A DNA stretch of 64,000 nt, taken from Escherichia phage vB_EcoM_G8. The DNA is taken from the sequence record NC_054915.1. One strand, given 5' to 3'. The notes beneath the pieces were generated by a model. It had not been told where the DNA came from. It made no database searches and saw only the letters and a program-made list of their open reading frames with translations. The translations under genes were made by a program, and so were the position numbers. Below are positions 30,504 to 40,097 of this stretch, piece by piece (within the stretch, counting starts at the first letter, position 1; each line of letters begins with the position of its first letter).

Positions 30504-31082
30504 TTAGGAATTACGGGCTGCATTAGCAACGGCGTAAGCGTACTGGACATTAGCGTCTTTAAACGTACCTTTAGAGGTATCTATTTCTGCCTTAAAGCCG
30601 CCTTTAGCCATAACATCGGCAAATTCTTTACGGAAAGCCATTGCATCAAGACCTTTCCATGATGATTTATGCTTGGCAAATTCAAGACCAGCGTAGTTGA
30701 CAGCCTTAGCTAATTTATTATCAATAACCCATTTACCGGCTTTAGGCACAAACTTCGGGCCTTTTTGTTTAGAGAACAGTTTTAAATTCCAGCGACGAAG
30801 GTCACTGTCGGCTTTAACAAAAGCTGCGTCTAAGTTACTAGCAACAACATCTTCAATATGGGCAAATTTAAGTCCGTCAACTTCAATATTTAGATCGTTA
30901 CGCCAGCGAAGTCCTTCCCAAGCGAAGGCTTTAAAGTCGGAAGCCTTTGTAGCTAAGTACCGTTCAATAGGAGCTGTTTTAGGGTCAAAGCCGTTTCCCG
31001 ATCGGTAGGTCCACTCATCTTTATTAATGCCTTTGGCCTTTACTATAGAAGCTTCGGCAATAAATTCTTGATAGGTTTTCAT
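30504..31082 (-). CDS. ipIII: Internal protein with capsid-targeting leader (IPIII-like)
   Basis: 192 aa; N-terminal MKTYQEFIAE-A capsid-targeting sequence; early promoter at 31111-31140. Confidence 0.6.
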   Translation of the reverse strand: MKTYQEFIAEASIVKAKGINKDEWTYRSGNGFDPKTAPIERYLATKASDFKAFAWEGLRWRNDLNIEVDGLKFAHIEDVVASNLDAAFVKADSDLRRWNLKLFSKQKGPKFVPKAGKWVIDNKLAKAVNYAGLEFAKHKSSWKGLDAMAFRKEFADVMAKGGFKAEIDTSKGTFKDANVQYAYAVANAARNS

Positions 31083-31110
31083 GTGTTTCCTTGTTTGTTT
31101 TGATAGAGTA

Positions 31111-31140
31111 ATTATACCATATTAATACTTAAGCGTAAAC
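31111..31140 (-). promoter_or_regulatory. T4 early promoter upstream of ipIII
   Basis: Minus strand GTTTAC -35 and TGGTATAAT -10. Confidence 0.6.
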
Positions 31141-31143
31141 CGT

Positions 31144-31404
31144 TTAAGCTTTACTGCCAGAAATAATTCCGAAGTTGTTAAAATCATATCCAATATCGTC
31201 AACATCTACTTTAGGACTTGCTACAACATAAGCAATTTCACTACGTTTTGCACAGGTGTTGATTTCTTTACCATCGCCACCTAAGAAAGAATACCCATTA
31301 CGTTTTAATGAGCCAAAGTCTTCCGCATCACCAATGAAAGCTTTAACTTTAAATTTAGAACCTCTGGCATCTGCTTCAACGATAAATTCTTGATACATTT
31401 TCAT
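31144..31404 (-). CDS. Internal protein with capsid-targeting leader (IPII-like)
   Basis: 86 aa; N-terminal MKMYQEFIVE-A leader. Confidence 0.5.
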   Translation of the reverse strand: MKMYQEFIVEADARGSKFKVKAFIGDAEDFGSLKRNGYSFLGGDGKEINTCAKRSEIAYVVASPKVDVDDIGYDFNNFGIISGSKA

Positions 31405-31410
31405 TTTTCC

Positions 31411-31617
31411 TTAGTAAATTGATTTACCAAAGTATTTGTACCAAGTCGGACGTTGATCAATTTTTTCATCTAAGCGTGCTTGATTTATCGCAATGGACGC
31501 TTCGGACGGGTCATAATTTCCTCCAAGTAGTTGATGAATGTATAGTATCAAAACCCTTGGAGGAAGTAAACAACTATTTTTCTGAAGCGCCTGAAATATA
31601 TTTTTCAAGACGTTGTT
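31411..31617 (-). pseudogene. denV: denV (endonuclease V, pyrimidine-dimer glycosylase) C-terminal remnant
   Basis: Frame is open only from 31617 (in-frame TGA at 31618-31620) to stop 31411; ...[32 protein letters not shown] matches recalled T4 DenV C-terminus; no N-terminal two-thirds in any frame. Confidence 0.6.
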
Positions 31618-31855
31618 TCATCAGTGAGCCGTTCTTAGCGATTTCTTCCGGTTTATCGCACATACGCAACAAGGCTTCAAGCTTAACGATATCACTGGTG
31701 CGCTCAAATTTGCGAGTATCTATCTTACTAGCAAGTTCAGAAATACGTGCTAATAGACTTTCAGCTTCAACCAAAGCTGCACCTAGCTTAGTTGCAAATG
31801 TGTCAGTAGCTTCGTTAAGAATAGATTCTGATAAAAATTCACTATATGTTTTCAT
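31574..31855 (-). CDS. Novel protein with capsid-targeting leader, occupying the denV N-terminal position
   Basis: 93 aa from ATG 31855 (ATGA overlap with e stop); N-terminus [11 protein letters not shown] fits the internal-protein leader; no similarity to DenV. Confidence 0.5.
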
Positions 31856-32340
31856 ATATACGCTTTCCAAGTTCCTGTTTTAAATGTTGAGATTACGCGT
31901 TTCGCGCGATTAGGTGTCTGACGATACCATTTAGATTGGGCTAGATTTACTGCTGCTTCATCCCAGCGTTTTTGTTGGAGCATACGTAAAGAATTAGTAA
32001 ATCCTGCCACGCCGGTTTCTCCCATTTGGAAAACCATATTAATCAATGCGCAGCGGCGAACAGCATCAAGAGAATCATAAACTGGTTTTAATTTAGCATT
32101 TCTCAGAATTCCGCGAACAGCAGCATCAACATCCTGATTGAAGAGTTTTTCAGCCTCATCTTTTGTAATTACACCATTGCAATTACGTCCAATAGCTTTA
32201 TCTAATTCAGATTTGGCAACACTAAGTGATGGACTTTTGGTAAGCAAATGACCAATGCCAATAGTGTAATAGCCTTCGGTGTCTTTATAGATTTTAAGTC
32301 TAAGACCTTCATCTATACGTAACATTTCAAATATATTCAT
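31852..32340 (-). CDS. e: Endolysin (T4 lysozyme e)
   Basis: 162 aa; [32 protein letters not shown]... near-identical to T4 lysozyme but with a different extreme C-terminus (..TGTWKAYI); two TATAAATA late promoters upstream. Confidence 0.95.
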
Positions 32341-32353
32341 AATACCTCCTAAG

Positions 32354-32374
32354 TATTTATAGAAGGTATTTATA
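32354..32374 (-). promoter_or_regulatory. Two tandem T4-type late promoters upstream of e
   Basis: Minus strand TATAAATA at 32354-32361 and 32367-32374, then AGGAGG and ATG at 32340. Confidence 0.6.
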
Positions 32375-32376
32375 AA

Positions 32377-32832
32377 TTAAAAGAGGCTGTTCATTATTCG
32401 GTAAAGTGAAGGACCCATCACATATTGCCACTGAGTACGAGGAATAAGGGCAAAAGCATCCATCTCTGGAATCATAACACCATCTTTATTTTCAAAATAA
32501 GACTCGCAATGACAATTTCTGAACATCTCATGCTCTACTGGAATCGTATAATAAAATAACTGTAAGTCTTTATTACTAGAATATTTAAATACACCTAGGT
32601 CTTCTAGAAGGTCTGGATTATAATTGCTAAAACCGGTCTCTTCTGAGCATTCTCTTCGTGCTGCATCTAATGCGCTTAAATCAGAATTTTCTACACGCCC
32701 CTTTGGAATATCCCAGCGATGTGCCATCATTCCAGGCTTACGAGAACCAGTAACCCGTCCCATGAATAAATCTTTATCTTCTGTCATAAAGATAATACCA
32801 GCTGATAATGTTTTCATTTTAATTTCCTGCAT
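32377..32832 (-). CDS. nudE: Nudix hydrolase
   Basis: 151 aa; Nudix box GRVENSDLSALDAARRECSEETGF. Confidence 0.8.
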   Translation of the reverse strand: MQEIKMKTLSAGIIFMTEDKDLFMGRVTGSRKPGMMAHRWDIPKGRVENSDLSALDAARRECSEETGFSNYNPDLLEDLGVFKYSSNKDLQLFYYTIPVEHEMFRNCHCESYFENKDGVMIPEMDAFALIPRTQWQYVMGPSLYRIMNSLF

Positions 32833-38690: not shown

Positions 38691-38691
38691 G

Positions 38692-38765
38692 CTGGGAATA
38701 AAGGACTCGAACCTTTGCATCTAGCAGTCAAAGTGCTGTGCCTTTACCAATTTGGCTAATTCCCA
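38692..38765 (-). tRNA. tRNA-Gln (anticodon UUG)
   Basis: Hand-folded: 74 nt, acceptor UGGGAAU/AUUCCCA, anticodon region CUUUGAC; 1 nt from tRNA-Leu. Confidence 0.8.
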
Positions 38766-38862
38766 ATTATTAACAAAGGCTCTCAAACAAGAACCCTTGA
38801 TGATAGAGGGTATTAATCAGTGCGGTATGAATTAATAATAACAAATAATTCTTAAAGCATAT

Positions 38863-39150
38863 TTACCATTTATGATAATACATATTTACGATGCATTCAA
38901 GACCCAAAGGATTCTTGAAAATATCATATTCAAGAGGACCTTTTTCTGTTTCAATAAAGAAATCAAAATTTACTGTATTAAATTTACGGTCTTCCTTCAC
39001 TAATTTAACTTGAGAAGATGAACGGTCAACATAAACCTTTTCAACTTCAAAACATGTTAAAACGCCATAATCATCAATCAAGGCTTTAGCCGCGTCTTGA
39101 TCATATTTATATCCATTTTCAATGGATGATACTTTAGCATAAAGAATCAT
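38863..39150 (-). CDS. Hypothetical protein
   Basis: Minus-strand ORF 95 aa. Confidence 0.45.
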   Translation of the reverse strand: MILYAKVSSIENGYKYDQDAAKALIDDYGVLTCFEVEKVYVDRSSSQVKLVKEDRKFNTVNFDFFIETEKGPLEYDIFKNPLGLECIVNMYYHKW

Positions 39151-39152
39151 TA

Positions 39153-39533
39153 TCAGCCTTCATCAACAATAGTATGAGTGTGGGCATTTACAATTTGCCA
39201 CCAATCAAAGCGATTAGAACCATACATCAGTTTGTTTTCATTTTCTTTGATAATATCACGGAGTTCATCTTCGGTAGCGGCTTTCGCGATTAAATCAGCA
39301 TATCCACCACGAGGATAATAATTATCACCTGCAAAAAGTAAAAAGTTTGGTTTAATATTATTAAACTCTTCAAGAGTAATAACTGTTCCACCAGGTTGAA
39401 CAATATCTACATAACTATATCCTAATTTTTGAGCAGCATCTACTGCTTCAAGCAGGGTATCATGAGCCCATCCAATTTGGCAATCTGGCTTTTCAGATGG
39501 ATTAGCCTGATAATCCGCGTACACTTTATACAT
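39153..39533 (-). CDS. Hypothetical protein
   Basis: About 126 aa from an internal ATG (ORF-track start 39572 overlaps the upstream small ORF). Confidence 0.45.
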   Translation of the reverse strand: MYKVYADYQANPSEKPDCQIGWAHDTLLEAVDAAQKLGYSYVDIVQPGGTVITLEEFNNIKPNFLLFAGDNYYPRGGYADLIAKAATEDELRDIIKENENKLMYGSNRFDWWQIVNAHTHTIVDEG

Positions 39534-39534
39534 T

Positions 39535-39720
39535 CTATTCACCTTTAGAAATTTTATCCATAACGATAGCAATTAAACCAATTAAAAATGCTACTACAAG
39601 TGAAAAAACATTTTCTGCTGTAGTCAATAATCCGCATATAAATCCAACAAACATTGAAAAACTAAAAGCGGAAGCAGAAATTGCAATAGCAACATTTCGA
39701 ATTAATTCACAGCGTTTCAT
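39535..39720 (-). CDS. Small membrane protein
   Basis: 61 aa, almost entirely hydrophobic; early promoter upstream. Confidence 0.4.
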   Translation of the reverse strand: MKRCELIRNVAIAISASAFSFSMFVGFICGLLTTAENVFSLVVAFLIGLIAIVMDKISKGE

Positions 39721-39744
39721 TTTATTCTCCTCAGTAGTTGATAG

Positions 39745-39778
39745 GGTAATAATATCACTACCCTATCTAAAAGTAAAC
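39745..39778 (-). promoter_or_regulatory. Probable T4 early promoter
   Basis: Minus strand GTTTAC -35 with A/T-rich -10 region; spacing approximate. Confidence 0.45.
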
Positions 39779-39788
39779 GGTTTATAAA

Positions 39789-40097
39789 CTATTTTATTCC
39801 GCGTGATGCAATTGTGTTCTGCCGTTTAACACCAGTCTGTTTAAAGTCATGATTGTCGATTTGATCGGTACGAGCAACTCCGAATGATGATTTGATCTTA
39901 GCCTTAGATCCTTTAGTTATAGAAATAAACATCTCGGAAGCCCCTTTCTTAAAGTCCGAGGCGATTACTTCAACGCCGTTCTTAGCAAGTGACTTCAGAA
40001 TTGCCTCAGCATACTCATCGTCAAGACTCGCCTGAGTATTAATAACGAATGTCTTTGGCGCAGCCGCTTCATTGATAAATTCTTTAAATGTTTTCAT
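39789..40097 (-). CDS. Internal protein with capsid-targeting leader (ipI-locus position, adjacent to 57B)
   Basis: 102 aa; N-terminus MKTFKEFINE-A capsid-targeting sequence; early promoter at 40125-40157. Confidence 0.6.
   Translation of the reverse strand: MKTFKEFINEAAAPKTFVINTQASLDDEYAEAILKSLAKNGVEVIASDFKKGASEMFISITKGSKAKIKSSFGVARTDQIDNHDFKQTGVKRQNTIASRGIK

Follow-up and report, generated by a model that had tools for sequence, protein, structure and literature searches.

GmrSD-type Type IV restriction enzymes cut glucosyl-hydroxymethylcytosine DNA. T-even phages carry variable sets of internal proteins (Ips) with a capsid-targeting sequence (CTS) beyond IpI–III, as Repoila et al. 1994 are said to have described, and five open reading frames (ORFs) that begin with such a leader are analysed here in Escherichia phage vB_EcoM_G8 (NC_054915.1); the window is the whole stretch of 64 kb under analysis, and all positions are counted in it. 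The Ip1, Ip2 and Ip3 proteins of T4 each inhibit a single, different GmrSD enzyme of Type IV and do not cross-protect, and at least 10 Ips, Ip4–Ip10 included, are recognised in T-even phages (PMC12373910). IpIII is needed on ECOR17 and works without its CTS when it is expressed by the host (PMC9391042). As far as the IpIII mutants of Mullaney and Black are summarised in PMC9026906, residues 4 and 7 of the CTS are the main targeting determinants and residues 8 and 10 the processing determinants, and cleavage by gp21 occurs after the glutamate of L/I-x-E (PMC9026906).

In the proposed course of events, the N-terminal CTS of about 10–15 residues would bind the scaffolding core and thereby load the Ips into the prohead, the prohead protease gp21 would trim the leader after this glutamate, and the mature proteins would stay with the DNA in the head and enter the host together with it. 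Since they would be injected with the DNA, Ips could act in a new host ahead of all phage gene expression. No other phage effector is in place in the host on arrival of the DNA, and Ips would therefore decide the survival of modified T-even DNA against Type IV restriction. The Ip inventory of a phage helps to predict its host range and is relevant to choosing therapeutic T4-like phages.

To judge from the DNA itself, the source of the window is a T4-like phage of the genus Tequatrovirus. Many genomes of this genus (T4-like Straboviridae) match the region at 94–96% DNA identity, and the gene order of T4 is kept from vs.8 through e, nudE, e.2–e.8 and rnaC/rnaD to the tRNA cluster with segB, trna.2–4, the ipI locus, 57B, 57A and gene 1. 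The five leader-bearing ORFs are all located on the minus strand, and their coordinates include the stop codons (aa, amino acids; a slash marks a gp21 cleavage site):

30504..31082, minus strand: ipIII orthologue, 192 aa; leader MKTYQEFIAE/A; predicted mature protein 20.3 kDa, pI 9.65
31144..31404, minus strand: internal-protein candidate of 86 aa, no Ip number; leader MKMYQEFIVE/A; predicted mature protein 8.1 kDa, pI 6.4
31574..31855, minus strand: Ip5-related internal protein, 93 aa; leader with two L-x-E sites, ending /SILNE/A
36198..36659, minus strand: candidate internal protein, 153 aa, RB32ORF132c / phrog_2280 family; predicted mature protein 15.8 kDa, pI 9.4
39789..40097, minus strand: ip7, 102 aa; leader MKTFKEFINE/A; predicted mature protein 9.9 kDa, pI 9.65

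An earlier note on this DNA had reported five ORFs with the T4 capsid-targeting leader and bodies otherwise unrelated to each other; its coordinates are exact and its N-termini are as quoted. The pattern that it proposed, M-K-[TM]-[YF]-x-[EQ]-F-[IL], run over the six-frame translation of the window, gave exactly five matches, all at these ORFs, while about 0.001 matches are expected by chance from residue composition and a mean of 0.005 was obtained over 200 shuffles. Relaxed leader patterns added only two fragments of 13–19 codons, and a position-set scan built from Ip1–9 of other phages detected no further leader-bearing ORF of at least 40 aa in the window. Each of the five ORFs is intact in 216–510 phage records of about 1,145 related ones, and each has a Shine-Dalgarno sequence together with a promoter or a coupled start. 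The claim of unrelated bodies held as well, no pair among the five falling below E = 0.7 in BLASTP with the first 12 residues removed.

Homology to the body of a named Ip was found for three of the five, namely IpIII (94% identity over the full length of T4 IpIII), Ip7 (100% to RB15 Ip7) and the 93-aa protein (48% to RB15 Ip5, E = 2e-23). The 86-aa and 153-aa proteins had no match to the bodies of Ip1–9 beyond the leader; membership in the class depends on the leader, not on the body, so this does not exclude them. Searches of Pfam, NCBIfam and PDB sequences with the five proteins yielded nothing meaningful. From the leaders, homologies, loci, promoter and cassette structure, all of which are seen directly, we infer packaging, cleavage, injection and activity: the five ORFs very probably encode dispensable internal proteins that are loaded by the CTS, trimmed by gp21 and injected, and that have anti-defence roles. 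Most likely, the IpIII orthologue would block the ECOR17-type two-gene GmrSD, and the other four proteins most likely would neutralise other first-line defences acting at the stage of DNA entry.

Like IpI, IpII and IpIII of T4, the five proteins are small and dispensable, with mutually unrelated bodies behind the same type of leader. The targeting residues are present in all five (Y or F at position 4, F at position 7). Four also have the processing residues, I/L at 8 and E at 10, with a small residue after the glutamate, the sites being I-A-E/A in IpIII, I-V-E/A in the 86-aa protein, I-N-E/A in Ip7, and L-S-E/S followed by L-N-E/A in the long two-site leader of the 93-aa protein. In these four the leader of about ten residues ending in x-E, as given in the earlier note, is found; in the 153-aa ORF the glutamate stands at position 11 and the site is not a canonical L/I-x-E. 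Four of the ORFs lie in the two classical ip loci also used by T4 (downstream of e, and between 57B and trna.4), in synteny with the ip loci of T4, T2, T6 and RB51, whereas the 153-aa ORF is situated at a third locus.

Unlike in T4, orthologues of IpI and IpII are not found in the window, Ip7 occupying the ipI locus instead, and the order after e is Ip5-like gene, denV remnant, 86-aa gene and ipIII, as opposed to ipIII, ipII and denV. Furthermore, four of the five genes are missing from T4, and the mature proteins include two that are not basic. Only IpIII is the orthologue of a T4 protein, which settles against the possibility, raised in the earlier note, that all five might be.

The count of five, two more than the three of T4, stands, but it is not unusual. 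In RB15 the ipI locus by itself holds four ip genes, the Ip7 of this phage being identical to that of the window, and the nearest relative, PP355091, also has IpI, IpIII, the 86-aa and 93-aa genes and a shortened allele of the 153-aa gene. T2 has Ip4, Ip5 and Ip7, RB51 has Ip4, Ip5 and a 157-aa ORF (RB51ORF140), and T6 has only Ip5 and Ip6, with the whole e-proximal ip locus absent. In T6 (MH550421, 60000–76000), regB directly follows e, and the block of ipII, ipIII, denV and vs.3–vs.8 is absent. Five Ips are thus ordinary for the genus, and the set shares with the named T-even Ips the conserved leader, the unrelated bodies and a cassette-like exchange. A window of 64 kb cannot define the whole injected repertoire of the phage, as the note had proposed for this set. 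The overall phenomenon is already known and most of the set is catalogued; what is gained is a clean assignment of each gene and the flagging of a family present in about 500 phage genomes. Beyond existing annotation there is only this one point, plausible from the sequence features described below, that the phrog_2280 family has internal-protein hallmarks at a third locus.

The 153-aa ORF of this family is positioned between e.8 and the rnaC/tRNA cluster, and the following elements surround it (nt, nucleotides):

36688..36695, minus strand: T4 late promoter box TATAAATA, exact match, 36 nt upstream of the 153-aa ATG
36158..36193, minus strand: downstream copy of a 36-nt direct repeat, rnaC-type terminator hairpin, cassette edge
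36693..36728, minus strand: 36-nt direct repeat on the upstream side, with terminator hairpin and T-run, directly before the late promoter

The late box occurs only 8 times on this strand in the 64 kb and is kept upstream of seven of the nine homologues examined, that of a Klebsiella phage included; the order terminator, late box, Shine-Dalgarno sequence and leader also recurs at 7/9 homologues, among them the one in Klebsiella Jiaodavirus. The two repeat copies share 94% identity at a spacing of 535 nt, and the RB51 record mentions a '34 bp imperfect direct repeat' here. The single rnaC terminator of T4 aligns to both copies, which indicates a 500-bp insertion in the window as compared with T4. 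The cassette of terminator, late promoter, Shine-Dalgarno sequence, CTS-bearing ORF and terminator may have entered at the rnaC terminator when copies of the terminator recombined. Arbiol et al. 2010 reportedly described mobile regulatory cassettes of T4-type phages, with modular shuffling mediated by promoters and stem-loops. The 153-aa gene resembles these in having a regulatory stem-loop duplicated on either side of it, as would fit insertion or excision by recombination between the two copies, and differs in its repeat, here a terminator hairpin with a late promoter behind it in place of an early-promoter stem-loop.

The protein matches phrog_2280, a family of unknown function, and is 72–95% identical to other Tequatrovirus copies. 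The members RB32ORF132c and RB51ORF140 share its position, flanking repeat and late promoter. The family was found in 510 phage records and, among the 40 matches listed, all are called 'hypothetical' or similar; no paper or record naming it an internal protein was found, Repoila et al. 1994 and Ip10 lying outside the comparison. As to possible identities among the named Ips, Ip4 (157 aa, of similar length) and Ip6 were considered and rejected, each matching in the leader only. The predicted mature protein is basic, like IpI–III. A HMMER search of 1.84 billion representative proteins returned only nine clusters, whose full-length distant members have a CTS-like start. The AF2 model (pLDDT 77) begins with a three-helix N-domain, which has an invariant AGKYSYK motif found in both Tequatrovirus and Klebsiella Jiaodavirus; a K/P/A-rich linker, predicted as disordered, leads to a helical hairpin at the C-terminus. 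Fold searches with this model gave no specific or informative match.

The leader of the window allele, MKTYAQFLMTE/A, reads L8-M9-T10-E11/A, with Met instead of Leu/Ile at P3, and is not canonical at positions 8–10. The common 157-aa allele starts with MKSYAQFLNE/AVLNE/AS and is of the same long-leader type as the 93-aa relative of Ip5. According to the family alignment, the window allele differs from it, and from the RB32ORF132c / RB51ORF140 family, by a deletion of four leader codons (FLNEAVLNE to FLMTE), leaving M-T-E/A as its only candidate cleavage site. The sequence features expected of an injected protein appear to be complete in this family but for a canonical cleavage site, which is missing from this allele; the 153-aa ORF may well encode an internal protein, so far unrecognised, at a third locus, and it is an immediate candidate for screens with orphan defence systems. 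For the fuller proposal, that the family would be an unrecognised injected class with a third ip locus, a late-promoter cassette and an N-domain joined to an exchangeable C-domain, directed at a defence beyond the GmrSD enzymes blocked by Ip1–3, we see the balance as about even.

The alternative that the 153-aa product is a late cytoplasmic or virion-associated accessory protein, whose likeness to a CTS comes from shuffled ip-type 5' ends and whose leader is non-functional here, is rather unlikely. It would account for the non-classical locus, for the label 'hypothetical' in every record listed, for the noncanonical site, for a leader score of only 6 out of 11 on the positions taken from Ip1–9, and for the frequency of shortened alleles. 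Nevertheless, the targeting determinants Y4 and F7 are intact and the late promoter fits the timing of prohead assembly. Distant relatives at 34–48% identity keep the leader together with L-x-E (MLKFNEFLAE/G, MLEYSEFLKE), and the Klebsiella Jiaodavirus homologue, which starts with MKFKEFLIE/A, has the leader and N-domain in common with the window protein and a different C-terminal domain. A leader with L-x-E before a small residue, retained while the bodies have diverged to this extent and the C-terminal domain has been swapped, argues for one that is functional and selected and not a relic. Regarding the position of the site, T4 IpI itself is cut after residue 19, so that displacement from residue 10 is tolerated.

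The shortened alleles (93–111 aa), which occur in nature beside deletion fusions, are as expected for a dispensable accessory gene. Two chimeras were seen in metagenome or run assemblies, one (P0009) with a trna.3-like N-terminus ahead of the final 31 residues of the 153-aa family and the other (P0010) joining the first ~30 mature residues of the family to nudE; they point to large deletions that remove the tRNA cluster or e.2–e.8 in some relatives.

A second alternative, that the five proteins are mainly structural or DNA-condensing (charge neutralisation, or an aid to scaffold or head shape) and do not serve counter-defence, is judged quite improbable. It follows the classical view, in which a head holds about 300 copies of every basic Ip, and polyheads accumulate in IPIII-minus and IP0 mutants while Ips co-purify with gp22 (PMC9026906); moreover, a strongly basic pI of 9.4–9.7 is predicted for three of the five mature proteins. 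On the other hand, the specific anti-GmrSD function has been demonstrated for T4 Ip1, Ip2 and Ip3, and IpIII lacking the CTS still works in the host. The ip genes can be dispensed with, and close relatives differ in which of them they have, T6 being without the whole e-proximal locus; the mature forms of the 86-aa and 93-aa proteins are close to neutral. The mutually unrelated bodies also fit diversified targets better than one generic role. Finally, a chance or annotation artefact (spurious ORFs, too short a similarity), to which the motif of only ~10 residues and the weak BLAST E-values between leaders (0.002–0.2) might point, is already refuted by the leader statistics and the conservation of the ORFs across records, together with the three matches to named Ips and the start signals at each ORF.

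Several observations weigh against the reading of the five ORFs as injected anti-defence proteins. Ip4–10, Ip7 included, showed no reproducible inhibition of 15 GmrSD groups (PMC12373910), so that the role of GmrSD inhibitor cannot be extended to the non-T4 Ips; the earlier note's expectation of counter-defence functions is backed by the published inhibition by T4 Ip1–3. The near-neutral 86-aa and 93-aa proteins are unlike the classically basic Ips. A literature search on the virion proteomics of T4-like phages turned up no result that could be assigned to the five ORFs. Finally, the 153-aa ORF lies outside the classical loci and is not called an Ip in any record listed, its product may be packaged yet unprocessed, or processed poorly, as its leader suggests, and the frequent 93–111-aa alleles imply that some copies are decaying.

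At the e-proximal locus, the ipIII orthologue matches phrog_5341 'internal virion protein' (E = 1e-117) and is preceded by an early-type promoter, GTTTAC-N17-TATAAT. An early-type promoter is also found for ip7, and the late boxes of both genes are no better than one-mismatch matches. The 86-aa family, present in 216 phage records, is named 'hypothetical' or, in some RefSeq records, 'internal head protein', and Y4, E6, F7, I8 and E10 are invariant in its alignment. A distant relationship to Ip7, suggested by a match to phrog_2667, was rejected, as the hhalign probability dropped from 94% to 0.14% once the leader was trimmed; the phrog_2667 match common to Ip7 and the 86-aa protein is therefore driven by the leader. 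The AF2 model of the 86-aa protein was unusable (pLDDT 48). Between this gene and that of the 93-aa protein the following remnant is located:

31414..31539, minus strand: what is left of denV (endonuclease V), residues 96–137 only, with an ip gene on either side

In a tblastn search with T4 denV, this segment was the sole match in the window (42 aa at 74% identity, E = 3e-16). Around 31505–31570 (minus strand), denV still has its promoter, its Shine-Dalgarno sequence and its ATG-ACC-CGT start; the remnant is out of frame with that ATG, and the retained start opens an ORF of 9 codons. The phage is thus probably without the UV-repair enzyme DenV, a pyrimidine-dimer glycosylase, as far as the window tells. 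The former early promoter of denV now stands upstream of the 86-aa ip gene.

The 93-aa protein matches phrog_3499 (E = 1e-46) and is 100% identical in many Tequatrovirus records, with 'internal head protein' as its RefSeq name; unlike Ip5, which is encoded at the ipI locus, it adjoins e. An in-frame TTG is present 15 nt upstream (31870), while related records start at the ATG at 31855. This ATG overlaps the TGA stop of the lysozyme gene e (ATATGA, 31852–31855, minus strand), an arrangement that suggests translational coupling. The lysozyme gene is two codons shorter than that of T4.

At the classical ipI locus, ip7 is placed between 57B/acb1 and trna.4. Directly upstream of it lies 57B (40170–40625, minus strand), whose counterpart in the nearest relative carries the annotation of anti-CBASS nuclease Acb1, and a known counter-defence gene would thus adjoin the hypervariable ip locus. 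Among the features near the 153-aa cassette, positions 36693–37037 (minus strand) are 93% identical to T4 rnaC and rnaD, which encode the small stable 'species 1 and 2' RNAs; Rfam and ARAGORN made no rnaC/rnaD call, and both were placed by alignment to T4. An ORF like RB69ORF150c / RB51ORF141 (37037–37435, minus strand) is inserted, relative to T4, between rnaD and tRNA-Arg. Its longest reading, from a TTG, overlaps tRNA-Arg (37406–37482), so that the internal ATG (MKGNVYL...) is probably the real start. As in T4, a segB-type GIY-YIG homing endonuclease gene (37486–38151, minus strand) is found inside the tRNA cluster of eight genes, and the tRNA-Met (CAT) called by ARAGORN at 38193–38264 takes the position of the T4 tRNA-Ile.

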